Shown here piece after piece: positions 7,499 through 58,498 of a stretch of DNA of 64,000 nt. Under the pieces are notes generated by a model. It did no database searches, was not told where the DNA came from, and saw only the letters and a list, made by a program, of their open reading frames with translations. Origin of the DNA: Patescibacteria group bacterium (GTDB lineage Bacteria > Patescibacteriota > Patescibacteriia > Magasanikbacterales > GWA2-37-8); NCBI GenBank assembly GCA_041651015.1, contig JBAZKA010000004.1:1010-65009 (forward strand). Direction: 5' to 3'. Within the stretch, counting starts at the first letter, position 1. Each line of letters opens with the position of its first letter. Position numbers and translations under genes: made by a program.

Positions 7499-7583
7499 AA
7501 GTCGGTTAATTTCAAGACATCTATATTATAGCATTTTTTACGCCTCAAAAGAATGTTTTTTTGCGAAGTTATCCACAGAAATA

Positions 7584-7691
7584 GTTCATAAAGTTATAAA
7601 GTTTTTAAAGTTTGTAAAGTAAAAAATCTCCCGTTTCCACGGAAGACTTTTGTCTGCTTTATAACTTTATGAACTTTATAACTTTATGAAC
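7584..7691. repeat. AT-rich inverted repeat built from AACTTTATAA/TTATAAAGTT units, between the giant-gene start and the trxA stop
   Basis: Left arm gttcataaagttataaagtttttaaagtttgtaaagt (7584-7620). Right arm ctttataactttatgaactttataactttatgaac (7667-7691) is its reverse complement. Right arm overlaps the trxA stop codon. Confidence 0.55.
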
Positions 7692-8010
7692 TAAGACATC
7701 GGTCAATCATCTCCATTAATTTTTCCTTCTGCAATCCCCCGTTTAATGTATCAACCGGCGCGCCATTCTTAAAAACAATAAATGTCGGCACGCTCATCAC
7801 TTCCCACTTGCCCGCCACCTCCATATTTTCATCCACGTTTAATTTTCCAATTTTAATATTCTTGCCTTCATAATCCTTGGCCAGCTCATCCACAATCGGA
7901 CCCATCATCTGACACGGCCCGCACCACGGCGCCCAAAAATCCACCAAGACCGGCACGTCGGATTTCAAAACTTCGGCTTCAAAATTAGAATCAGTAAAAA
8001 CTTTTTCCAT
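7684..8010 (-). CDS. trxA: Thioredoxin
   Basis: 108 aa, WCGPC active-site motif, typical thioredoxin length and sequence. Confidence 0.9.
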   Translation of the reverse strand: MEKVFTDSNFEAEVLKSDVPVLVDFWAPWCGPCQMMGPIVDELAKDYEGKNIKIGKLNVDENMEVAGKWEVMSVPTFIVFKNGAPVDTLNGGLQKEKLMEMIDRCLSS

Positions 8011-8024
8011 AAGTAAATAATTAT

Positions 8025-8105
8025 GTACGAAATACGAAAGCTACGAAACTTACAAAAATGTTTTCATTACACGTTCGTATATTTCGCAGTTTTCGTATTT
8101 CGTAC
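8025..8105. repeat. Solo (empty) copy of the TACGAAA-heptamer inverted-repeat element (MITE-like)
   Basis: gtacgaaatacgaaagctacgaaa (8025-8048) and tttcgcagttttcgtatttcgtac (8082-8105) are near-perfect reverse complements with ~33 bp between them. The same arms flank the GxxExxY gene at 44932-45422. Confidence 0.5.
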
Positions 8106-8106
8106 A

Positions 8107-10125
8107 TTAACTTAAAACTAATTTTTTTTCTTTTTTCTCTTCTTTGTACGCTTCCAAAACATCGCCAACTTCCACATGCAACTTACCCTCATACTGCATA
8201 CCGCATTCGGTTCCTTCCGGCACTTCGTTCACATCCTGTTTGCTCATTTGTAATTTAAAAATTTTACCCGCACCAATTACCTCGCCGGCGCGTTTTACGC
8301 GAACCTTAGCGTCTTTTTGCAATTTTCCCTTTTCGGCCCGGCCGCCCAAAATCATTAAATTTTTCTCGGTGCGGAAAATCGCCATGACTTTAAAATTACC
8401 CAGCTCGGTGACAATCACTTCAGGATTCAAAAGTTTTTCCAATTCGTCTTTAACAAAATTTAATAAGTCGTAAATAATTTTGTATGGTTTAAAATTTACA
8501 CCGCGCGTCACAATCATTTCACTGGCGATGGAAGTCGGCGAAACGTTGAAGCCAAACAAAATTCCTTTGGTCGTTTCCGCGAGAGCCACATCATCCGGGC
8601 TGACATTACCCAAACCCTTGCCTACGACTTTGACCGACACTTCATCATTTTTTAATTTTTCCAGTGAGCCGATAATCGCTTCCAATGAACCGAGAGTATC
8701 GGCTTTCACCACCACATTCAAATATTTTTTCGGTTCATCGGGATTATCATTATTGGTTGAAGAAACCGGGCGTTGCTCAGCGCCGGATTGTTGCGTGCGT
8801 TTGGATTTCAGGTCAATTTGCGTTGCGCTGCCCGCTCCGCCCACGTCCAACACATCGCCGACTTGCGGAGCGACTTTGAAACCCAAAATTCTGATTGGTG
8901 AACTCGGTCCGGCTTCGGTCAAATTTTCTCCGCGATAATTTTTCATGGCCCGGACTTTGCCGTAAATTTCTCCGTTTACCACCAAGGCATCGTTTAATTT
9001 TAGAGTACCGGTCTGCACCAAAATCGTGGCCACCGGGCCTTCACCCTTGTCCACGTGCGCTTCAATCACCGTGCCCGCGGCCGCGCGATTAGGCTCGGCT
9101 TTGATGTCGGCTTCGTGCATATCAGCGAGCAAAAGCAAAGTATCCAATAGTTTATCAATATGTAAATTCTGTTTGGCGGAAATTTCCACCATTGGCACTT
9201 CTCCGCCCCATTCATCGGAAATAATTCCGTGCTGGGAAAGTTCGGTGCGCACACGCATGGCATCAGCGCCTTCTTTGTCAATTTTATTTATAGCCACGAT
9301 CACCGGCAATTTAGCCGCTTTGATAATATTGATCGCCTCCACGGTCTGCGGTTTCACGCCATCATCAGCTGCCACCACCAGGATGGCGATGTCCGCCACT
9401 TTGGCGCCTCGGCTGCGCATAACGGTAAAGGCCTCGTGGCCCGGAGTATCAATAAAAGTAATGGCGCGTTTTTCTTTGTTCTTCGGATCAGTCCAAATAG
9501 TTTGGTACGCGCCGATGTGCTGAGTAATACCACCGGCTTCGGTGTCAATAATATTTGCGTTTCTAACCGCATCCAATAATTTTGTCTTGCCATGGTCAAC
9601 GTGGCCCATGACTATGATGACCGGCGCGCGCATGGTGGTTTTTTCCGAAAGAATTTTTTCCAAATTTTGTGTGTGGGTTTGGTCTGTGTTTTGCGGAGCG
9701 GCTCCCTCGGCAATCGCCTCCACGGTAAAGCCCAAATCCTCGGCAATAATCGCGGCCGTGTCTCGATCCAGAAATTCATTCATGGAAACAAGAATGCCGT
9801 TTTTCATCAATTCCACAATTAATTTATTGAGCGGAACATTCAAAACATTGGATAAATCTTTGACCGTGATACGCCCGGGAATTTTAACCGTCGCCCCGCT
9901 CTGACGGCGAGCTTCTTTTTCCAGTTCTTTTTGTTTTTCCCGTTCCTTTTTTTCCCGATCTTCCAAGACGAATTTTATCCGGCGCCATTCGCGTTGAATT
10001 TGCTGAGCCACACGGTCATCAATCTTTACGGCGCGGGCGCCAAAATCAAAACCAAACTCGGGCAATATTTGCAGAAGTTTTTGCGGGTGGACTCGGAGCT
10101 GGCGGGCAAGGTCGGTGACGTTCAT
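8107..10125 (-). CDS. infB: Translation initiation factor IF-2
   Basis: 672 aa. GTP-binding domain (GHVDHGKT, DTPGH, NKID) and the IF-2 C-terminal beta-barrel. Confidence 0.95.
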   Translation of the reverse strand: MNVTDLARQLRVHPQKLLQILPEFGFDFGARAVKIDDRVAQQIQREWRRIKFVLEDREKKEREKQKELEKEARRQSGATVKIPGRITVKDLSNVLNVPLNKLIVELMKNGILVSMNEFLDRDTAAIIAEDLGFTVEAIAEGAAPQNTDQTHTQNLEKILSEKTTMRAPVIIVMGHVDHGKTKLLDAVRNANIIDTEAGGITQHIGAYQTIWTDPKNKEKRAITFIDTPGHEAFTVMRSRGAKVADIAILVVAADDGVKPQTVEAINIIKAAKLPVIVAINKIDKEGADAMRVRTELSQHGIISDEWGGEVPMVEISAKQNLHIDKLLDTLLLLADMHEADIKAEPNRAAAGTVIEAHVDKGEGPVATILVQTGTLKLNDALVVNGEIYGKVRAMKNYRGENLTEAGPSSPIRILGFKVAPQVGDVLDVGGAGSATQIDLKSKRTQQSGAEQRPVSSTNNDNPDEPKKYLNVVVKADTLGSLEAIIGSLEKLKNDEVSVKVVGKGLGNVSPDDVALAETTKGILFGFNVSPTSIASEMIVTRGVNFKPYKIIYDLLNFVKDELEKLLNPEVIVTELGNFKVMAIFRTEKNLMILGGRAEKGKLQKDAKVRVKRAGEVIGAGKIFKLQMSKQDVNEVPEGTECGMQYEGKLHVEVGDVLEAYKEEKKEKKLVLS

Positions 10126-10834: not shown

Positions 10835-11542
10835 ATGCCATTTCTTCTCGTGGACAAACCTGTTGGCTGGACCAGTTTTGATGTGGTCGGTTTTATCCGT
10901 AAAGAGGAACGCAAAAATATTTCCGCCCAAGGCGGACAGGCCTCGGGCCTGAAAGTCGGTCATGCCGGTACACTGGATCCATTTGCCACCGGTCTTTTGA
11001 TTGTGGCAGTCGGGCGCGAATCCACCAAGCGTTTGGATGAATTTAAAAAATTACCAAAAACATATATCGCCACTGTGCGGTTGGGGGCGACATCGGATAC
11101 AGATGATTGTACTGGCCAAATTTCCAATGTCAAATTTCCAATGTCAAATCAAGCTCAAAATCCAAATGACAAAATCCCCGACCAAGCGCAAATCAAAAAA
11201 ACTTTACAAACATTTATCGGCGAGCAAGAACAAGTCCCGCCCCGATACTCGGCCAAAAAAATTAACGGTCAAAAAATGTATTCAATGGCCCGGGCCGGAA
11301 AAGATTTTGTCCGCGAACCATCGGTTATCCACATTTATGATATAGAACTATTGGATTACACCTGGCCCGACCTAAAAATCAAAATTGATTGCGGGTGTGG
11401 CACCTACATTCGCTCGCTGGCCCGCGATTTGGGCGAGGCTTTGGGTGTGGGCGGATATTGCGCTGAACTGAGGAGGACGAGAATTGGTGATAACAAAATT
11501 GAGGACGCCATTGCGATTTCCGACCTAAAAATAGGCCGTTGA
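10835..11542 (+). CDS. truB: tRNA pseudouridine(55) synthase
   Basis: 235 aa. N-terminus MPFLLVDKPVGWTSFDVV and catalytic HAGTLDP motif. Confidence 0.9.
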   Translation: MPFLLVDKPVGWTSFDVVGFIRKEERKNISAQGGQASGLKVGHAGTLDPFATGLLIVAVGRESTKRLDEFKKLPKTYIATVRLGATSDTDDCTGQISNVKFPMSNQAQNPNDKIPDQAQIKKTLQTFIGEQEQVPPRYSAKKINGQKMYSMARAGKDFVREPSVIHIYDIELLDYTWPDLKIKIDCGCGTYIRSLARDLGEALGVGGYCAELRRTRIGDNKIEDAIAISDLKIGR

Positions 11543-11839: not shown

Positions 11840-13367
11840 TATGAATACATTAATTTGGGCGGGTATTGCCATTATCGCCGCGGGGCTCGGCGTCACCGCC
11901 GGTTATTTTTGGCGCAAAAAAATGGCTACCTCCATGGCCAATTCCATGGAAGCCAAGGCGGAAAAAATCCTTGCCGAAGCCAAAACCAAATATCAAGAAT
12001 CCATCTTGGAAGCCAAAGAGAAAGCCGTGCAAATGATGGAAGAGACCAAGCGCGAGGAACGCAAAATGCGCCAGGACATGCAATCAGCGCAACAGCGTTT
12101 GGAAAAACGCGAAAGCATGTTTGACCAAAAACTTTTGGAATTCCAAGACAAGCAAACCAAGCTGCAAGAAAAGATAGACCACATCACCAATATCAAAACT
12201 GAAATTGAAAAATTGCGCGACCAAGAATTCCAAAAATTGCAAAGCGTGGCCGGTATGACGCGCGACGAGGCCAAAAATCTTCTGATGGAAAAAGTTGAAG
12301 AAGACAGTAAAACGGATTTAATGGGACGCATTATCAAATTGGAAAAAGAATCATCTGAAGCCTTTGAAGACAAAGCGCGCAATGTCATTGTCACCGCCAT
12401 TCAACGCTGTGCCTCGTCACACGCGGCCGAGACCACTTCCACGGCCGTCACTCTGCCGAGTGATGAAATGAAAGGACGCATTATCGGCAAAGAAGGCCGT
12501 AACATTAAGATGATAGAAAAACTCACCGGCTGTGAACTCATCATTGATGAAACTCCGGAAGTGATTACCGTATCCGGTTTCTCCCCCATTCGCCGTCAGG
12601 TGGCCAAACTCGCTTTGGAAAAATTAATGGAAGATGGACGCATCCAGCCGGCGCGCATTGAAGAATTTGTGGAAAAAGCCAAACAGGATTTGGCTTTGGA
12701 CATCAAAAAAGCCGGCGAAGAAGCGCTCTACAAAATGGGTATCACCGGTATTGACCCGAAATTAGTCGGCATTGTCGGACGCCTCAAATACCGCACTTCT
12801 TACGGCCAAAATATATTGAATCATTCCATGGAGGTTGGTTATCTCGCCGGCATTATTGCCTCGGAACTCGGTATTGACGCGGCCAAAGCCAAAAAATGCG
12901 GTTTCTTCCACGACATCGGTAAATCCGTTGACCAGGAAACTCAGGGCTCGCATCCGGAGATTGGCTATGCCATCATGAAAAAATTCAACATGGATGAGGA
13001 CTTGGCCCAAGCCTCGCTCACCCATCATATGGACAAGCCGTACAATATTTTTGCCACTGTGGTCAAAGCGGCTGATGCCATTTCCGGCGCCAGATTTGGC
13101 GCGCGCAAAGATTCTTACGAACAATTCGTCGCCCGCTTGGAAGAATTGGAAAAAGTGGCCGGTGATTTCCCGGGCATTGAAAAAGTTTACGCCATCCAGG
13201 CCGGACGTGAAGTGCGCGTCTTTGTGAAGCCGAATGAAATTGATGATTACGCCGCTTATCAGCTGGCCAAGGACATCGCCCGAAAAATTGAACAAGAATT
13301 ACAATATCCGGGTGAAATTAAAATCACCTTACTCCGCGAAACCAGAGTGATTGAATACGCCAAGTAA
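11840..13367 (+). CDS. rny: Ribonuclease Y
   Basis: N-terminal TM helix, coiled coil, KH domain (GRIIGKEGRNIK) and HD domain (FHDIGK). Start chosen at MNTLIWAG (ATG 11840) rather than the upstream alternative start in the ORF track. Confidence 0.9.
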
Positions 13368-13395
13368 GTTGAAAGTCAAAAAGTTGTAAAGTTCA

Positions 13396-13428
13396 AAAAG
13401 TCCCCGTAAATTCTACGAGGACTTTTTG
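13396..13428 (+). terminator. Intrinsic terminator after rny
   Basis: aaaagtcc-(16 nt loop)-ggacttttt. Confidence 0.5.
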
Positions 13429-13518
13429 ATTTATCATTTTAGCCTTGTGGACAAATCTTTGCTCAATACAGCAAAAAATGCTATTATAAATACGAGGTAA
13501 AAGTTTATATAGATATAT

Positions 13519-13558
13519 ACTTTATAAACTTTATAACTTTACAAACTTTATAAACTCG
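13519..13558. repeat. AACTTTAYAA repeat array upstream of hup
   Basis: tactttataaactttataactttacaaactttataaactcg. About 90% identical to 53023-53065 and related to 7584-7691. Confidence 0.55.
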
Positions 13559-44358: not shown

Positions 44359-44925
44359 ATGACTGTAGTTTATATCATCATTGGTGTTTTGGCAATAGTC
44401 GCCATTTGGTTGATTGCCACGTATAATGGCTTAATTAAAAGCAAAAATCAGGTGGATGAAGCCTTTTCAGATATTGACGTTCAATTGAAACGCCGTTATG
44501 ACTTAATTCCCAATTTGGTGGAAACAGTCAAGGGCTATATGACCCACGAGCAAGGCACTTTGGTCAAATTGACCGAAGCCCGCGCCTCGGCCATGCAGGT
44601 CCACGATAATAAAAACGCCACCCTGGCCGAACGCGAGGCCGCAGAAAATACTTTATCCGGAACTTTGAAATCTTTATTTGCGGTGACGGAAAATTATCCA
44701 GACCTCAAAGCCAGCCAAAATTTCTTGCAATTGCAGGATGAAATTTCCGACACGGAAAATAAAATTCAGGCTTCACGCCGATTTTACAATGGTAATGTTC
44801 GCGATTTCAACACCAAAATTCAGGTCTTCCCCACCAACATGATTGCCAACTCGCTCAAATTTGTGAAATACGATTTCTTTCAGGCGGCCGACGGCGAAAA
44901 GCAAAACGTGCAGGTGAAATTCTAA
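44359..44925 (+). CDS. lemA: LemA family protein
   Basis: N-terminal TM then NGLIKSKNQVDEAFSDIDVQLKRRYDLIPNLV, the LemA signature. Confidence 0.85.
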   Translation: MTVVYIIIGVLAIVAIWLIATYNGLIKSKNQVDEAFSDIDVQLKRRYDLIPNLVETVKGYMTHEQGTLVKLTEARASAMQVHDNKNATLAEREAAENTLSGTLKSLFAVTENYPDLKASQNFLQLQDEISDTENKIQASRRFYNGNVRDFNTKIQVFPTNMIANSLKFVKYDFFQAADGEKQNVQVKF

Positions 44926-44931
44926 TATAAT

Positions 44932-45422
44932 GTACGAAATACGAAAGCTACGAAAAGTACGAAAAAATAAATTCAAATTATGGAGGGGCAACATCAATTA
45001 AGACGCATGGATTTATTATATCCGGACTTATCTTATATAATTAACGGAATTTTATTTAGTGTCTATAGACAACTTGGCGGCGGTCACAAAGAATCATATT
45101 ACCAAAAAGCCGTCGCTACTGCTTTACGGGACAAGGGCATTAAATTTGTTGAACAATACTATGTTCCGCTTAAATATAACAATCAGATCGTTGGAAAATA
45201 TTACTTGGACTTTTTGATTGAAGATAAAATAGTATTGGAATTAAAACGAGGAAAATATCTCGTGGCAAAAGTAATTGATCAAACAAATCAATATTTAAAA
45301 ACTCTTAATCTCCAACTCGCAATTATCGCCTGTTTTACCTACACAGGAGTTACTCCAAAAAGAATAATAAATATAAATAATCATTAACTTTCGTAATTTT
45401 CGTAGCTTTCGTATTTCGCACA
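44932..45422. mobile_element. Inverted-repeat-bounded cassette carrying a GxxExxY nuclease-like gene, filling the lemA-htpX intergenic space
   Basis: Left arm gtacgaaatacgaaagctacgaaaagtacgaaa (44932-44964). Right arm tttcgtaattttcgtagctttcgtatttcgcac (45390-45422) is its near-perfect reverse complement. Same arms occur empty at 8025-8105. Confidence 0.45.
44980..45387 (+). CDS. GxxExxY family protein (PD-(D/E)XK nuclease superfamily)
   Basis: QLGGGHKESYYQKAVATAL contains the family-defining G-x-x-E-x-x-Y motif. About 130 aa, typical size. Later ...YLDFLIEDKIVLELKRGK fits a PD-(D/E)XK core (D...E.K). Confidence 0.6.
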   Translation: MEGQHQLRRMDLLYPDLSYIINGILFSVYRQLGGGHKESYYQKAVATALRDKGIKFVEQYYVPLKYNNQIVGKYYLDFLIEDKIVLELKRGKYLVAKVIDQTNQYLKTLNLQLAIIACFTYTGVTPKRIININNH

Positions 45423-45428
45423 TAAAAT

Positions 45429-46328
45429 ATGTACTCTGAAATTTCCTCCAACAAAAGAAAATCAGTTTTGCTCGCGTGTATTTTTATCGCCATCATTATT
45501 TTCCTCGGCTGGATTTTTGACTATATTTATGGCGGGGGGCAAAGCTATAGCGGTATGATTTTTGCGATTCTTATCGCCCTTGTCATGACCATGATCTCAT
45601 ATTTTTCCGGAGACAAAATCGCTCTGGCCACGACCGGCGCCAAAGAAATTCAGCACGACGATAATAAATATTTATTTCACCTGGTGGAGAATCTTTGTAT
45701 CACCGCCGGCACGCCCATGCCGAAAATTTATGTAATTAATGACCCGGCCATAAACGCTTTTGCCACGGGGCGCGACCCCAAACACGCGTCCATCGCCGTA
45801 ACCGCGGGTGCTCTGCAAAAATTAACCAACGAAGAACTGGAAGGCGTAATTGCCCACGAATTATCCCATGTCAAAAATTATGACATCCGTTTTATGATGC
45901 TGGTCGCGGTTATGGTCGGGGCCATTTCCATTTTCGCCGACATCATGCTCCGCTCGGGCGGAATTTTCCGCGGCGGACGTGACAATGACCGCGAAGGCGG
46001 GTCGTCGCTTTTCGCGATTCTCATGATTGTCGGGATTATCCTCGCAATTTTGTCGCCAGTAATCGCTGAATTGATCAAACTGGCCATTTCGCGCAAACGC
46101 GAATATCTGGCCGATGCGTCGGGCGCTCTGCTCACCCGCTATCCCGAAGGGCTGGCCAGTGCTTTGCAAAAAATCGGCGATGAGAATCAGCCGATGAAAA
46201 AATCTTCTTCAGCCACGGCGCATTTATTTATTGCCAGCCCGTTTAGCGGAAAAAAATTAAAGAGTATATTTTCCACCCATCCACCCATTGAAGATAGGAT
46301 AAATAAATTACGGATGATGGGGAATTAA
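45429..46328 (+). CDS. htpX: Zinc metalloprotease HtpX (M48)
   Basis: HELSHVKNYD HExxH motif, multiple TM helices, C-terminal FSTHPPIEDRI. Confidence 0.9.
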   Translation: MYSEISSNKRKSVLLACIFIAIIIFLGWIFDYIYGGGQSYSGMIFAILIALVMTMISYFSGDKIALATTGAKEIQHDDNKYLFHLVENLCITAGTPMPKIYVINDPAINAFATGRDPKHASIAVTAGALQKLTNEELEGVIAHELSHVKNYDIRFMMLVAVMVGAISIFADIMLRSGGIFRGGRDNDREGGSSLFAILMIVGIILAILSPVIAELIKLAISRKREYLADASGALLTRYPEGLASALQKIGDENQPMKKSSSATAHLFIASPFSGKKLKSIFSTHPPIEDRINKLRMMGN

Positions 46329-53022: not shown

Positions 53023-53065
53023 GAACTTTACAAACTTTATAACTTTACAAACTTTATAACTTGAT
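53023..53065. repeat. AACTTTAYAA repeat array abutting the start codon of the 53067 gene
   Basis: gaactttacaaactttataactttacaaactttataacttg. Paralogous to 13519-13558. Confidence 0.55.
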
Positions 53066-54979: not shown

Positions 54980-56455
54980 ATGAAAAAACTTTTTACAATT
55001 ATTTTTCTCGGCGGGTTTTTGTTTTTGCCGATGACGGCATTTGCAAAAAGTTGTTGCGTTTGCAAAATGTATTCTGCCGGCGAATCTGTAAGCACGGCCA
55101 GCCGCGCGTTTAATACCATCACGGATGACACAGACGCCAAGTGCACGACAGGTAAAAAAGATGAGTTGAACGCGGGTGTCACCCTATCCTATTATACTTG
55201 TTCAATCGCGGAAAACGCTGGCTGTGAGGTAGAAGAAGCTACACCGGAGATGACCACCATCGCTGAAGAGCTCGGCTTAAAGGATGTCGTTCTTGGCATT
55301 AACATCCCGAGTTTGCATTTTAGCGCGCCACCCACTAAAGTTGACTCGGAAGGCAATCTGTATATTTCTTGGGCCGCCGAATACATCAAAGCAATTTACA
55401 ATTTTGCTCTGGTCGCCATCAGCATACTAGCTGTTGTCGTCTTAATTATTTCCGGCGCGCAAATTATCACTTCAGCCGGCGGTCCAGCTAAAGGCGCGGC
55501 TTACAAGCGCATCACCCAAGCCATCATCGGACTGTTCATTGCTTGGGGTTCTTATGTCGTGCTTTATACCATCAACCCGGATTTGATCGCTTTGAAATCG
55601 CTGAAAATTGCGTATGTACAAAAAATTGAAATTGAAGTTGTATCTGATGCAGACTATAAAACACTTACTGGAAAATCTCCCGGCGCACCAGCTGAATTAT
55701 TAAAAATGGCAGTTGAAGCTGGAAAAAAAATCGGGCTCACTGATGATTGCATGATGAAAACAATCGTCAGCAAAGAATCGGGAGGCAATGCGGGCGCTAT
55801 TGGCCATGACGAAAATTTTAATCGTACGACTCATATTGTCTGGGCGCGACGAAATTTTCTTTTGAGCGGAACCACATATAAAGGATCTTCGTTTACACCG
55901 GTAGCGACCGACAAAAGTAATTACAAAGCAACGATGAACGCAAGCGGTATAAAAAATGATGATTCGTTTAACGTAAATAATCCTCCTGATTATGGACTTG
56001 ACTGGCGTTTTTCTCACGGTATCGGCTTGGGACAAATGACTATCAATCCAAACAAAAGTATGGGGGGGTATAATTCATGTGAAACCACCAGAGCCGACGG
56101 CAAGACTGAACGAGGTATTAGCAAAGGCGGAGAGTGTATAGGCATATCAAAGCTTATGGAACCAGAAACTGCTGTTGAACAGTCGGCTAAATTATTTAAA
56201 AGCAATCTTGAATGTGCGGCCGGTCTTGGACTTTCCGGCGAGGAACAATTTAGAGGCGCTTTATTTGCTTATGCGGCGGGTTGCGGGGCATTAAAAAAAT
56301 TAGGCGGATCTTTGCACTCTACTCTACAAACACATAAGACGGTCACGCGCGCGATGACATATTATACAGCCTGCAAAGCGGATTCAAGTATCGGCCCCGA
56401 TAGCGCCCCGGAGCAATCACCCGTGGCTACCTCCGATGATGAAGAATCAAATTAA
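54980..56455 (+). CDS. Membrane protein with Cys-rich N-terminal region, two-TM VirB2/TrbC-like hairpin and C-terminal lytic transglycosylase (SLT) domain
   Basis: Signal peptide, CCVCK.. cysteines. Two hydrophobic helices separated by GGPAKGAAYKR. SLT catalytic region ...SKESGGNAGAIG... and ...GIGLGQMT... Confidence 0.55.
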   Translation: MKKLFTIIFLGGFLFLPMTAFAKSCCVCKMYSAGESVSTASRAFNTITDDTDAKCTTGKKDELNAGVTLSYYTCSIAENAGCEVEEATPEMTTIAEELGLKDVVLGINIPSLHFSAPPTKVDSEGNLYISWAAEYIKAIYNFALVAISILAVVVLIISGAQIITSAGGPAKGAAYKRITQAIIGLFIAWGSYVVLYTINPDLIALKSLKIAYVQKIEIEVVSDADYKTLTGKSPGAPAELLKMAVEAGKKIGLTDDCMMKTIVSKESGGNAGAIGHDENFNRTTHIVWARRNFLLSGTTYKGSSFTPVATDKSNYKATMNASGIKNDDSFNVNNPPDYGLDWRFSHGIGLGQMTINPNKSMGGYNSCETTRADGKTERGISKGGECIGISKLMEPETAVEQSAKLFKSNLECAAGLGLSGEEQFRGALFAYAAGCGALKKLGGSLHSTLQTHKTVTRAMTYYTACKADSSIGPDSAPEQSPVATSDDEESN

Positions 56456-56459
56456 TATC

Positions 56460-57821
56460 ATGTCTTCAAAACCTCAAACAATATTCTCTTGCAACAACTG
56501 CGGCGCCCAGTTCCAGAAATGGACCGGGCGTTGTTTGGAATGCGGAAAATGGGGCACGATAGATAAAGAAGCCAAAATCATTCGCGAGAAAAAATCTGAA
56601 ACAAATGAATACGCGCCGGCGAAATTATCCTCGCTCTCGGAAATAAAAAGTGAAAATGCCGCACGCGTGAAGACAAATATAAATGAACTGGACCGCGTGC
56701 TCGGCGGAGGACTGGTACCGGGCAGTATTATTTTACTCGGCGGAGAGCCCGGCATCGGCAAATCCACGCTCGCGCTTCAGCTCGCTTCCCTACTCCCGAG
56801 TTCGCTTTATCTCTCAGGCGAAGAATCAGCCGAACAAATTAAACTCCGCGCCGACCGTTTGAGCGTCAAAGCGCAAAATCTGAAAATCGGAAATGAATCA
56901 AACATTGAAACAATCATCAGCACGATTAAAAAAGAACGTCCGCAAATTACCATTGTGGATTCGGTTCAAACAATTTATTCCGATGAGTCCGTTGGCGAAG
57001 CCGGCAATCTGGCGCAAGTGCGCGCCTGTACCGTCAAACTTATGGAGCTGGCCAAGTCCGAGCATTTAACGATCGTGCTGATCGGGCAAGTGACCAAAGA
57101 AGGCACGGTGGCCGGACCAAAAACTTTGGAACATTTGGTGGACACTGTTCTATATTTAGAGGGTGATAGATTTCATCAATTCAGAATTTTGCGCGCAGCC
57201 AAAAATCGTTTTGGCTCCACTGATGAAGTCGGAGTTTTTTCCATGGAAGAAAACGGTTTGCAAGAAGTGAAAAATCCTTCGGCCGCGTTCCTGGGCGAAC
57301 GGGCGGAAAACGCACCGGGCAATGTGGTGGCGTGCCTGATGGAAGGCACCCGGCCGATTCTGTGCGAAGTACAAGCCTTGGTCAATAAAACCGCGTTTGG
57401 TTATCCGGTGCGCAAATCAAATGGCTTTGATTTGAATCGTCTGCACATGCTCGTGGCCGTCCTGGAGCGCCGGGCCGGATTAAATTTATCTCAATACGAT
57501 ATCCATTTAAATATTGTCGGCGGTCTCACGGCCGATGAGCCGGCGGCCGACCTCGCGGCCGCTCTGGCCATTGCCAGCGCTTACAAAGATAAATCCCTTG
57601 GATCGGACATGGCTGCCTTTGGCGAGATTGGCTTGTCCGGCGAAATTCGTCCGGTCTCTTTCACGGAAAAAAGAATCAAAGAATGCGAAGGCCTCGGGCT
57701 CAAACGCGCTCTGACCAATTTGGGAAAAAAGAATAATCAGAATGTCATCCCCGCGAAGGCGGGGATCCAGAAAATTAAAATCATTGATATAAAAAACATT
57801 TCAGAAATTATACGAATATAA
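56460..57821 (+). CDS. radA: DNA repair protein RadA/Sms
   Basis: Zinc finger CNNCGAQFQKWTGRCLECGKWG. Walker A GGEPGIGKST. KNRFG motif. Lon-like C-terminal domain. Confidence 0.9.
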   Translation: MSSKPQTIFSCNNCGAQFQKWTGRCLECGKWGTIDKEAKIIREKKSETNEYAPAKLSSLSEIKSENAARVKTNINELDRVLGGGLVPGSIILLGGEPGIGKSTLALQLASLLPSSLYLSGEESAEQIKLRADRLSVKAQNLKIGNESNIETIISTIKKERPQITIVDSVQTIYSDESVGEAGNLAQVRACTVKLMELAKSEHLTIVLIGQVTKEGTVAGPKTLEHLVDTVLYLEGDRFHQFRILRAAKNRFGSTDEVGVFSMEENGLQEVKNPSAAFLGERAENAPGNVVACLMEGTRPILCEVQALVNKTAFGYPVRKSNGFDLNRLHMLVAVLERRAGLNLSQYDIHLNIVGGLTADEPAADLAAALAIASAYKDKSLGSDMAAFGEIGLSGEIRPVSFTEKRIKECEGLGLKRALTNLGKKNNQNVIPAKAGIQKIKIIDIKNISEIIRI

Positions 57822-57825
57822 CACG

Positions 57826-57901
57826 ATGCAAATATACGAATGCATACGAATTATACAAATAATCGTCGCAATATTCGTTATATTCGCATGAATTCGTATA
57901 T
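57826..57901. repeat. Inverted arrays of TACGAAT heptamers (variant of the TACGAAA inverted-repeat element), empty
   Basis: atatacgaatgcatacgaattatac ... attcgttatattcgcatgaattcgtatat. The arms are imperfect reverse complements. Confidence 0.35.
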
Positions 57902-57922
57902 TAGTATCGCATATAAAAAAAC

Positions 57923-58290: not shown

Positions 58291-58498
58291 CTCCACCCTC
58301 CTCAAAAAATGTACTTGTGATGTTTTCACAGCCCCTCCGTGAAAACGAAAACGCTAAAATAATAGCACAAAATGAACCAAATGTCAAATATCCAATGCCA
58401 AATTACAAATAAAACCCAAAACCAAAAATCCAAATTTTGATATTTGATATTTAGGCTTGATTTGACATTGGAAATTGGAAATTTGACATTACTTACCC

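Follow-up and report, generated by a model that had tools for sequence, protein, structure and literature searches.

A putative mobile cassette at an operon junction of a Patescibacteria bacterium: a GxxExxY nuclease-like gene between inverted arrays of a 7-nt word

The closest described relatives of the locus examined here are the ORF-bearing 23S rRNA intervening sequences (IVSs) of Coxiella burnetii and Leptospira, whose ORF encodes an S23p four-helix-bundle protein, and the REPIN-RAYT systems. The cassette is a member of neither. The Coxiella IVS is 428 nt long, with a 28-bp terminal inverted-repeat stem, a small ORF and three to four tandem GACAGAT heptamers in its 5' arm; RNase III cleaves the stem (PMC4990558). 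The cassette shares with these IVSs the size of the unit (~430-500 nt), an inverted-repeat stem of ~30 bp enclosing a small ORF, heptamers in tandem within the arm, a sporadic distribution with vertical persistence, short ORF-less versions, and an unexplained origin and mobility (PMC4990558). The original prediction, in which a model singled out this locus from sequence alone, overlooked this precedent. The cassette differs from the IVSs in lying between protein-coding genes and not in an rRNA helix; the DNA analysed has no rRNA match. Its ORF encodes a PD-(D/E)XK protein with an invariant core, whereas the IVS ORF encodes a decaying four-helix-bundle protein. It also has fixed four-word arms, covariation between a protein residue and the word, and arm mismatches without an RNA-strand bias, and a role for RNase III is only inferred.

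In REPIN-RAYT systems, as here, a nuclease/transposase gene lies between inverted copies of its cognate repeat (PMC3116915, PMC3337134), palindromic doublets without an ORF are scattered through the intergenic DNA of that genome, and inheritance is largely vertical over long periods (10.1101/2021.07.10.451892). However, RAYTs are HUH/Y1 enzymes of the IS200/IS605 type that act on single-stranded hairpins, and the cassette ORF is not an HUH/Y1 transposase but a PD-(D/E)XK protein. Each REP is itself a hairpin and copy numbers reach hundreds, whereas each cassette arm consists of 7-nt words in tandem, and only a few copies per genome were seen.

Other systems are more distant. Insertion sequences and MITEs share terminal inverted repeats round a gene, internal-deletion derivatives without an ORF, and presence/absence polymorphism; the cassette differs from them in having no target-site duplication, no known transposase family, ends made of tandem word arrays, and a strict orientation relative to host genes. 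Homing endonuclease genes, which include the small PD-(D/E)XK enzyme I-Ssp6803I, also put the gene of a small site-specific nuclease into exact positions that stay unoccupied in relatives, without border duplication. The cassette, however, is outside any intron or intein, it is still flanked by its putative recognition words on either side once inserted, and its ORF-less copies keep full arms. Intergenic heptamer repeats include the TAACTGA direct repeats of Beggiatoaceae, cyanobacteria and Bacteroidetes (PMC4679880). The cyanobacterial STRR are intergenic heptamer repeats as well. These share tandem 7-nt words, a position near start codons, a patchy distribution and no known mechanism, but are almost always direct, not inverted, and have no associated gene reported. 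Eukaryotic foldback transposons have long inverted ends of short tandem sub-repeats, and most copies are non-coding; they differ in being eukaryotic and much larger, with unrelated proteins. TIGR-Tas arrays, in which a Nop-domain Tas protein is found beside ~36-nt dual-spacer units with box C/D motifs (PMC12045711), were considered because they occur in CPR bacteria, and were rejected on unit size (7-nt words here), motifs and protein (PD-(D/E)XK here).

The window is the whole stretch of Patescibacteria group bacterium DNA that was analysed (64,000 nt). Within it, positions 44930-45423 form a single unit in which a 135-aa GxxExxY / PD-(D/E)XK gene lies between two 35-nt inverted arms, the whole being wedged between lemA and htpX (Table 1). 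This is as originally predicted, and the arms, put then at about 33 bp, measure 35 nt by gapped alignment. The left-arm words are spaced by 7/9/9 nt, and the arm starts 5 nt past the lemA stop codon. In the right arm, TTTCGTA occurs at 45389, 45398 and 45407, followed at 45414 by the degenerate TTTCGCA as fourth word. This arm starts 1 nt past the stop codon of the ORF and ends 5 nt ahead of the htpX ATG (45429). A public gene call on identical DNA (L001) places the htpX start 39 nt further in (window 45468). The inverted segments 44925-44964 and 45389-45428 are 90% complementary over 40 nt. The gapped alignment (44930-44964 / 45389-45423) scores 60, against a median of 17 and a maximum of 31 for a null of 400-bp segments taken from elsewhere in the same loci. 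Over the whole window the word TACGAAA shows no enrichment (16 observed vs 12.8 expected); the signal is its clustering and inverted arrangement rather than its abundance. TAC-type arrays occur at only three intergenic sites, giving one cassette and two palindromes in 64 kb.

Table 1. Positions of the cassette, the ORF-less palindromes and their neighbouring genes in the window
Feature	Position	Strand	Description
trxA (thioredoxin)	7684-8010	minus	Flank of the 8023-8107 palindrome
ORF-less palindrome	8023-8107	no strand	Four-word arms, 7/9/9 spacing, centre 7-33 nt
infB (IF-2)	8107-10125	minus	Flank of the 8023-8107 palindrome
lemA	44359-44925	+	PF04011; upstream flank, same strand as cassette
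Left arm	44930-44964	no strand	ATG and four TACGAAA words at 44933, 44940, 44949, 44958
GxxExxY (putative nuclease) gene	44980-45387	+	135 aa; TIGR04256 E 1.4e-24, PF13366 PDDEXK_3 E 9.4e-26
Right arm	45389-45423	no strand	Reverse complement of left arm
htpX	45429-46328	+	NF003425; downstream flank, same strand as cassette
radA (RadA)	56436-57821		Upstream of the 57824-57909 palindrome
ORF-less palindrome, TACGAAT word variant	57824-57909	no strand	Directly after the radA stop codon

No convincing promoter or terminator of its own was found at the cassette borders. An intrinsic terminator was rejected for the arms, whose words are ~29% G+C, because they contain no terminator-like site (no G+C-rich stem followed by a T-run). 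No known RNA family reaches threshold at the cassette; the only sub-threshold match, to RefA1, lies inside the ORF. In the transcript of 44915-45440 the arms are predicted to pair (z = -6.4).

The encoded protein belongs to the GxxExxY family (TIGR04256, 86.7 bits with a cut-off of 35; PF13366, 90.9 bits with a cut-off of 22), a large and widely annotated family of unknown function (PMC3424549). The motif is G35-H-K-E38-S-Y-Y41. The protein also fits the PD-(D/E)XK superfamily, with an alpha/beta core fold and the catalytic pattern E...D...E-x-K, and the predicted catalytic residues E38, D77, E87 and K89 are invariant in 79/79 proteins. The structure model is confident (pLDDT 88) and its best fold matches are Cas4, a restriction endonuclease and Hjc; a sequence search against solved structures gave no significant match. 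Since the fold search returns only generic PD-(D/E)XK neighbours, no specific function can be transferred. No transposase family in Pfam or NCBIfam matches the ORF, which matches only PF13366 and TIGR04256.

The gene-plus-arms design is present in 79 of 84 homologous loci, counted as those whose arm score exceeds the 99th percentile of the positional null. The gene contexts are many and unrelated (lemA|htpX, CNNM|RluA, glycosyltransferases, Na/Ca exchanger|AdoHcyase, fabD|fabG, radA|FAD protein). Cultured Bacteroidota, Sphingomonas, Gemmatirosa, Treponema and Prevotella have the same design with other words in each, and a homologue on a Fusobacteria plasmid (L169) has no clear arrays. Exactly four words are found in 113 of 158 arms, spaced 7-8 / 9-11 / 8-9 nt, and the word logo across arms is T-A-C-G-A-A-W. 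The words are uniform within one cassette (often 8/8) and different between cassettes, the dominant types by locus being ACGAAA (28), ACGAAT (18), ACAAAT (7) and ACTAAT (5). Spacer positions between words are 75% matched from arm to arm; therefore, arm-to-arm correction or pairing is needed besides word recognition. The cassettes are placed at stop-start operon junctions, in most loci with the left arm no more than ~7 nt from the upstream stop codon. Orientation, scored at 72 loci, matches both neighbours in 63 and opposes both in none (0/72), and every cassette is co-oriented with at least one neighbour.

Heptamer-bearing inverted ends are also found around four-helix-bundle ORFs (L143, L022, L041), as they are in the Coxiella IVS (PMC4990558), and so the arrays are not exclusive to the GxxExxY nuclease. 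GIY-YIG cassettes were also met among the word-array palindromes. No AAAGTT-word array was linked to an ORF in the DNA examined.

The arms could in principle be an ordinary intergenic signal (a promoter or terminator motif, for example) or a repeat that arose by chance, with the nuclease gene lying between two of them by accident. The location of the arrays at gene ends and the frequency of short-word arrays in intergenic DNA of this genome and its relatives are in favor of this. However, TAC-type arrays at just three window sites contradict generic arms at every intergenic site, and the cassette lacks a G+C-rich stem with a T-run. The gene is associated with the arms in 79/84 loci, the null maximum is far below the observed scores, and two junctions show presence/absence polymorphism. 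The comparative data already contradict this reading, which is all but ruled out.

In six relatives only 2-5 nt separate lemA and htpX; the cassette is therefore an insertion. Besides the window, the junction is occupied at 12 loci among the 82 other homologue loci checked, with L002 and L098 as additional copies of two of the 12. At least 13 related genomes have a cassette there. Occupied and empty alleles thus coexist among relatives, as expected of a homing gene, and most relatives have no cassette at this junction, so it is not universally kept there. At infB|trxA, a relative with an 88% identical TrxA (L178) has a 6-nt junction without the palindrome, so the ORF-less copy there is also an insertion. 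With both junctions near-empty in relatives, the predicted precise insertion holds. No target-site duplication was found beyond chance: over the 79 loci, direct repeats of at least 3 nt at the borders are no commoner than in shuffled pairings. A 2-nt border repeat signal was rejected as an artefact of palindromic dinucleotides inside the inverted repeat, with 3-6 nt repeats at chance. There is also no conserved cleavage motif at the element ends; as a result, the insertion chemistry is undetermined.

The orthologous cassette in L002 has arms ~91% identical, with the differences confined to spacers, and protein identities of 80% for LemA, 66% for HtpX and 68% for GxxExxY. Proteins at the orthologous site are 50-80% identical, compared with ~91% for the arms. 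The divergence of the cassette at lemA|htpX is comparable to that of the neighbouring genes. With at least 13 carriers and this neighbour-like divergence, its mobility must be evolutionary and not recent. The lemA|htpX copy is old and has long been vertically inherited, which would suit an element that is domesticated or useful to its host no less than a selfish one. At one junction, protein lineages and host genes are incongruent in part, and two lineages with different words share one junction in closely related hosts.

A domesticated host module is a second alternative. The protein would be a site-specific DNA-binding protein or nuclease stationed at operon junctions with the arrays as its operators, serving, for example, in insulation, local recombination or repair, or control of adjacent genes, and spreading rarely and incidentally. 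Persistence at one junction, arms that are better kept than coding DNA, a catalytic core intact in every copy, and the low copy number (one cassette and two palindromes in 64 kb) support this, and REPIN-RAYT systems show similar vertical persistence (10.1101/2021.07.10.451892). Against it, the neighbouring genes are unrelated from locus to locus, most relatives have no cassette at the same junction, the protein lineages at one junction are partly incongruent with host genes, and decayed copies exist. This explanation, together with its supposed roles, is unlikely.

The two predicted cargo-less copies, given at first as 8025-8105 (infB/trxA) and 57826-57901 (radA, TACGAAT), were confirmed with slightly larger extents (Table 1). 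The first has 39-nt arms, its left arm equals that of the cassette over 26 identical nt, and it abuts the infB stop codon with the trxA start 12 nt on. The cassette arms thus match a dispersed palindrome as the repeats of a REPIN-RAYT system would. The second is followed by a terminator-like hairpin and T-run, and its arms are a closer match to other genomes' cassettes than to the resident one. Among 14 independent cases, there are 7 in which the cassette of the same genome ranks first to third of 79 in its match to the ORF-less copy. The repeat both flanks the gene and is dispersed without it in the window and in L011, L012, L019, L069 and L082. An ORF-less copy in L017 (1645-1860) retains the first 13 codons of the gene (MYKGGELIYPELS*); therefore, ORF-less copies are derivatives in at least one case. 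No relative examined has a full cassette at infB|trxA or after radA. In-situ decay remains possible as the origin of the window's own ORF-less copies, with no supporting relative found. In relatives, the same junctions hold ORF-less palindromes built from a wide variety of words, and the centres of ORF-less copies have no common motif. Other short-word arrays are common in the intergenic DNA of this genome and its relatives.

The order of events could also be reversed, with the cassette a palindrome-homing gene. ORF-less palindromes would come first and spread by other means; the nuclease would cut an intact centre, repair templated by a copy with the ORF would install the gene, and the split site would be protected. 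The many-worded ORF-less palindromes at the same junctions in relatives, the intact arms on either side of the gene, the absence of a target-site duplication, and the two protein lineages with different words at one junction of closely related hosts are consistent with this, and I-Ssp6803I is an example of a small PD-(D/E)XK homing endonuclease. However, at least one of the ORF-less copies arose from a cassette by deletion and is no virgin site, and the centres share no motif. Arms of ~35 nt built from repeated words offer little homology for recombinational repair, and unoccupied junctions of 2-6 nt require that whole palindromes insert somehow. This makes the reading very unlikely.

The protein also covaries with the word. 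At the position of R30, the residue is N where the words end in T and K or R where they end in A or C, a rule that 72 of 79 loci follow. On a neighbour-joining tree there are about 11-12 switches of residue 30 and the last word base, and 8/8 informative independent contrasts between residue 30 and word base 7 go in the same direction. The result depends on a neighbour-joining tree of a 135-aa protein. From this covariation, residue 30 is inferred to be a candidate specificity residue for the last word base. Covariation for word position 4 is untrustworthy, as its top columns are driven by N-terminal alignment gaps.

The strongest competing explanation is an IVS-like RNA element, in which the arms act only as a double-stranded RNA stem, cut by RNase III so that the operon transcript loses the insert; the element could do without its passenger ORF, and the words would merely reflect how the stem came about. 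The Coxiella IVS, with its heptamers and cleaved stem, has a matching design, and the arms fit an IVS stem (35-40 nt, 90% complementary, paired in the predicted RNA fold). In CPR bacteria, rRNA-gene insertions that carry GIY-YIG ORFs fit neither class of intron, and ORFs of the 23S_rRNA_IVP (four-helix-bundle) type are likewise found in rRNA insertions (PMC11270868). The cassette is co-oriented with its operon and never opposed to both neighbours. However, arm mismatches show no preference for G.U over A.C (63 vs 60); therefore, pairing in the sense RNA is not what selection sees, and RNA-level selection on the stem as the sole constraint was rejected. A stem needs no set sequence, yet word identity, number and spacing are kept over 79 loci. 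A protein residue tracks a word base, and the catalytic core of the nuclease does not vary, whereas the S23p ORF of Coxiella is decaying. The IVS-like element is still possible, though not likely.

The preferred explanation, held with modest confidence, is a self-contained, evolutionarily mobile cassette that passes mainly by vertical inheritance, encodes a nuclease able to read the words on either side of it, and gives rise to ORF-less derivatives. Nuclease activity, DNA binding and movement of the cassette are all inferred, and none has been observed. The protein would bind the four-word arrays on duplex DNA as an oligomer and cut at or near them, and the unit would then be copied or moved by host repair or recombination without a staggered-cut duplication. 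Internal deletions would give ORF-less palindromes still recognisable to the resident nuclease. Transcription of the nuclease gene would be read-through from the host operon. The transcript arms would form a ~35-bp stem, and RNase III may cut it, as it does the stem of rRNA intervening sequences; the flanking genes would then suffer less harm.

The evidence therefore supports the predicted mobile element with miniature derivatives, with one clear derivative (L017) and a mobility that is evolutionary. The suggestion that the nuclease is cargo needs to be qualified, since it is likely to be the element's own site-reading protein rather than a passive passenger. The evidence does not distinguish homing from transposition, both of which had been suggested. 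The proposal of an undescribed class holds as far as the searchable literature goes, which yielded no description tying GxxExxY genes to repeats of this kind.

A bolder reading can only be put forward tentatively, as the balance is against it. The GxxExxY proteins would be the mobilising, site-reading enzymes of a so far unrecognised class of small mobile elements spread across bacteria. These elements would combine a minimal PD-(D/E)XK nuclease with inverted arrays of its own 7-nt recognition word, a simple and evolvable protein-to-base code, and duplication-free insertion at operon stop-start junctions. The ORF-bearing rRNA IVSs, the four-helix-bundle and GIY-YIG cassettes and some intergenic heptamer arrays, if not all, would belong to the same palindrome family.

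The finding gives the GxxExxY family a concrete and testable role, that of a putative nuclease tied to its own flanking word arrays, and Sphingomonas (fabD|fabG), Bacteroides finegoldii and Prevotella nigrescens are cultured carriers suited to testing it. It also bears on a question open since ~1990, the nature and spread of ORF-bearing rRNA intervening sequences, as their architecture is also present at operon junctions with other ORFs. Such cassettes may be where the intergenic heptamer arrays of several phyla, so far unexplained, come from, and a 135-aa putative nuclease with a readable one-residue-to-one-base relation may be of interest to enzyme engineers.

The 490-bp block from the lemA stop codon to the htpX start consists entirely of a left arm, an ORF and a right arm, in a metagenome-assembled genome of Patescibacteria (Magasanikbacteria-like). 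The left arm is 35-40 nt long, the right arm is its reverse complement at 90%, and both consist of four 7-nt words in tandem. The ORF matches both of its families well over the cut-offs. Scored as an inverted repeat, the cassette reaches 60, where the null goes no higher than 31. TACGAAA is not enriched across the whole window (16 found vs 12.8 expected); the signal lies in the clustering and inverted arrangement of the word, not in its overall frequency. No promoter-like or terminator-like site was found at the cassette borders in the window. The original prediction of a cassette between lemA and htpX, bounded by inverted arrays and with ORF-less copies elsewhere, held. A sub-threshold Rfam match inside the ORF (31 bits vs a gathering score of 94, E 7e-5) leaves it possible that the RefA1 sRNA family derives from a GxxExxY gene.

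Features of the window and of comparison loci from other genomes (L-numbers)
Locus	Position	Feature	Context or remarks
window	44359-44925	lemA	upstream flank of cassette, identified as LemA
window	44933, 44940, 44949, 44958	left-arm words TACGAAA	
window	44980-45387	nuclease ORF, 135 codons	TIGR04256 "GxxExxY protein"; Pfam PF13366 PDDEXK_3
window	44997-45204	match to RF02842 RefA1 (Enterococcus sRNA A1)	inside nuclease ORF
window	starts 45429	htpX	downstream flank of cassette, identified as HtpX
window	8023-8107	ORF-less palindrome, arms as in cassette, short centre	between IF-2 and thioredoxin
window	57824-57909	ORF-less palindrome, TACGAAT words	after RadA
window	7582-7693	AAAGTT/AACTTT palindrome, 50-nt loop	after trxA
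window	13366-13401 and 13514-13556	AAAGTT/AACTTT inverted pair	RNase Y-HU interval; terminator-like hairpin 13393-13429 inside the pair
window	53024-53062	AAAGTT/AACTTT direct array	directly upstream of ORF at 53061
L079	1326-1441	AAAGTT/AACTTT palindrome	
window	58380-58490	CAAAT/CCAAT palindrome, 41-nt arms	immediately past recG stop codon
window	11117-11149	direct repeat, 2.4 copies	14-mer common to the 58380-58490 palindrome
L017	1645-1860	ORF-less copy	
L019	1448-4225	TACGAAA-type arrays	at consecutive gene borders in one operon: flanking 262-aa ORF, flanking cassette, ORF-less palindrome past next gene
L039	2736-3681	five right-arm-type word arrays (2736, 2956, 3461, 3556, 3651)	last three ~95 nt apart; surround GxxExxY homologue without clear left arm
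L028	3459-3545 and 4017-4095	hicB-hicA-like gene pair (called by eye from sequence only)	inserted beside cassette, with ~80-nt duplication of right-arm end and first 36 nt of htpX
L175	482837-483265	GxxExxY gene, CGCGAAG-word arms	Sphingomonas parapaucimobilis plasmid, fabD / GxxExxY / fabG
L143; L022; L041	1988-2440; 1244-1728; 474-978	four-helix-bundle ORFs, TIGR02436	inverted arrays of GTTAATC, GTAGGA and TTGTT-type words
L096	95-517	AGTAAT-word arms	interior starts like four-helix-bundle family
L012	5476-5943	96-aa ORF, GIY-YIG-like by eye only	within G+C-rich inverted repeat (CCGCGAGGGCTCCTCGCAATGACG)
L179	2345-2500	ORF-less relative of CCGCGAGGGCTCCTCGCAATGACG repeat	fills infB-trxA junction in close relative of window's genome
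L177; L038	1-92; 2226-2355	further small palindromic insert family (GTCATCCTGAACTTGTTTCAGGAT)	

The gene and its arms are conserved together as a unit. Four homologues were looked at first (64-73% identity in BLASTP); they come from other genomes and four contexts (lemA-htpX, CNNM-RluA, between two glycosyltransferases, and Na/Ca exchanger-AdoHcyase), and all four carry arms of ~35 nt with ACGAAA or ACGAAT words. A homologue scan with one genome per species gave 80 loci, of 43-73% identity. These belong to Magasanik-, Parcu-, Sacchari-, Doudna-, Komeili- and Berkelbacteria, with a small number from Bacteroidota. Once the window and another three loci are included, flanking inverted repeats exceed the 99th percentile of a null drawn from other positions within the same loci in 79 of 84. 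Median element length is 507 bp. Exactly four words occur in 113 of 158 arms, spaced centre to centre at 7-8, 9-11 and 8-9 nt from outside to inside, and the word logo across arms is T-A-C-G-A-A-(A/T).

Both the cassette and the ORF-less copies are insertions. In nearly all of 80 metagenomic htpX loci lemA lies immediately 5' of htpX, and in six of these the gap is 2-5 nt. Other relatives have ordinary terminator hairpins at this junction, ORF-less palindromes of quite different words (AAAGGC, CAAAGT, GAGAGAA and others) or, in L143, a four-helix-bundle ORF within inverted arrays of GTTAATC words. The infB-trxA junction, where the window carries an ORF-less copy, is 6 nt in a relative with 88% identical TrxA; two other relatives (TrxA 82% and 90% identical) have unrelated small palindromic inserts there. 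Flanking direct repeats of at least 3 nt at the elements are not above chance. The left arm usually starts a few nt past the upstream stop codon and the right arm ends ~0-12 nt before the downstream start codon, a tight fit explained by insertion into junctions that are only a few nt long when unoccupied. This does not account for the strict orientation: both neighbours are co-directional with the nuclease gene in 63 of 72 loci and both opposite in none. The orientation implies that the element either relies on read-through transcription or uses a mechanism specific to one strand.

Operon junctions of these genomes accumulate many unrelated small palindromes. The GTCATCCTGAACTTGTTTCAGGAT family fills infB-trxA in the closest TrxA relative. 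A second word family in the window, AAAGTT/AACTTT, also forms palindromes at lemA-htpX in L112 and in L079; no associated ORF was found in the window or comparison loci. CAAAT/CCAAT is a third family.

The conserved number, spacing and sequence of the words suggest that a sequence-specific factor recognises them. All eight words in one cassette are usually of a single variant, and the dominant variant differs among cassettes (ACGAAA in 28 loci, ACGAAT 18, ACAAAT 7, ACTAAT 5, ACGAAC 4, TCGAAT 4, ACGGAT 3 and ACAGAT 2). Arm-to-arm paired positions are 89% Watson-Crick. Selection on pairing in the sense transcript would be one explanation, and is rejected as the sole constraint because G.U-type and A.C-type mismatches are equally common (63 vs 60). 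Agreement between the two arms is 93% at word positions and 75% at spacer positions, the latter far over random for the given composition. The matching spacers suggest an additional homogenisation of the arms by a process that is unidentified.

The GxxExxY protein itself appears to read its words; this is likely, and rests on covariation without binding data. Across 79 aligned proteins, the column holding R30 of the window protein gives 1.03 bits of information on the last base of the word, against 0.68 for the runner-up column. Of the 79 loci, 38 combine N at residue 30 with words ending in T and 34 combine K or R with words ending in A or C, 72 in total. On a neighbour-joining tree built without this column, residue and base each switch ~11-12 times. 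Residue 30 differs in eight of nine phylogenetically independent contrasts, all eight in the same direction (sign test, ~0.004 one-sided); the words of the ninth are poorly defined. The pattern would be chemically sensible for duplex DNA, with Asn opposite adenine on the partner strand and Lys or Arg facing the carbonyl of T or G. The predicted structure is a compact PD-(D/E)XK fold (pLDDT 88), nearest to Cas4, the BpuSI nuclease domain and Hjc, and puts residue 30 where helix 1 ends, immediately before the GxxExxY loop bearing catalytic E38. All 79 proteins share E38, D77, E87 and K89. The window protein has no significant sequence match to solved structures.

About twenty palindromes of TAC words occur in ~0.88 Mb of related DNA. 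The L017 copy retains an ATG, codons for YKGGELIYPELS and a stop; since YKGGELIYPELS is the conserved N-terminus of the GxxExxY family, some ORF-less copies are internal-deletion derivatives. For 7 of 14 independent ORF-less copies, the arms rank first, second or third among 79 when set against the cassette of their own genome; the window copy at infB-trxA comes third of 79. The remaining copies have other word variants and presumably correspond to cassettes located elsewhere in their genomes. The L019 arrangement may reflect local proliferation.

The lemA-htpX junction is also the cassette site in 12 of 82 other loci. Between the window and L002, the closest such cassette, identity is 80% for LemA, 66% for HtpX, 51% for the M50 protease, 63% for PheS and 68% for GxxExxY; the arms share ~91% DNA identity and differ only in inter-word spacers. 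Therefore, this copy is old, vertically inherited and under constraint. Nuclease and host-gene identity correlate (Pearson 0.56) over the 14 loci occupied by a cassette at lemA-htpX, a set that includes one pair of identical sequences. One host clade has two nuclease lineages with different words here, possibly by replacement or old polymorphism.

Distant family members (30-44% identity) on annotated replicons of cultured bacteria also lie between co-directional housekeeping genes, flanked by inverted arrays of lineage-specific words. Examples include Bacteroides finegoldii (radA / GxxExxY / FAD protein, CAGAGGA), Bernardetia (ade / GxxExxY / mannose-1-phosphate guanylyltransferase, CACAGAGA), Prevotella nigrescens (ACAAAT), Persicobacter (GGATT), Treponema (a 28-nt inverted repeat) and Gemmatirosa, with GACTGAAG words at one locus and, at another, an ORF-less CGCGGAT-word palindrome after the gene. 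One Fusobacteria plasmid copy has no clear arrays. The L175 cassette is inserted in a conserved fatty-acid synthesis operon in a culturable host suited to experiments.

Among known systems, the ORF-bearing 23S rRNA intervening sequence (IVS) comes nearest. That of Coxiella is a 428-nt "selfish" element of unknown origin, with a 28-bp terminal inverted-repeat stem cut by RNase III and a small ORF for a four-helix-bundle protein; its 5' arm contains GACAGAT heptamers, three to four in tandem (PMC4990558). Insertions in CPR rRNA genes carry 23S_rRNA_IVP (four-helix-bundle) ORFs, and GIY-YIG ORFs occur in insertions resembling neither intron class (PMC11270868). In the comparison loci, four-helix-bundle and GIY-YIG-like ORFs lie within inverted repeats between protein-coding genes. 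TIGR02436 is a family known in rRNA intervening sequences; no ORF of at least 70 aa was found inside the L096 arms. The REPIN-RAYT system is a functional analogue (PMC3116915, PMC3337134). The cassette fails the defining tests of these systems: it is not in rRNA and has no HUH transposase, target-site duplication, intron or intein. PF13366 is catalogued as of unknown function (PMC3424549), and the literature searched ties no flanking repeats to GxxExxY, PF13366 or TIGR04256. Beggiatoaceae, cyanobacteria and Bacteroidetes are reported to have intergenic direct repeats of heptamers whose origin is unknown (PMC4679880).

The predicted mobile element with nuclease-like cargo and cargo-less derivatives is supported on its main points. 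Taken jointly, a discrete, evolutionarily mobile cassette, a protein that recognises its cognate words and derivatives without the ORF are well supported and likely. A driving role of the nuclease itself in spread or maintenance, through putative cutting of DNA at the arrays, is plausible and unproven, and could equally prove wrong. Structural grounds make RNase III processing of a read-through transcript likely, but this leaves the conserved words unexplained. The element is best placed among inverted-repeat-flanked selfish ORF cassettes, as a new variant, and there is a real chance that it defines a class of its own.
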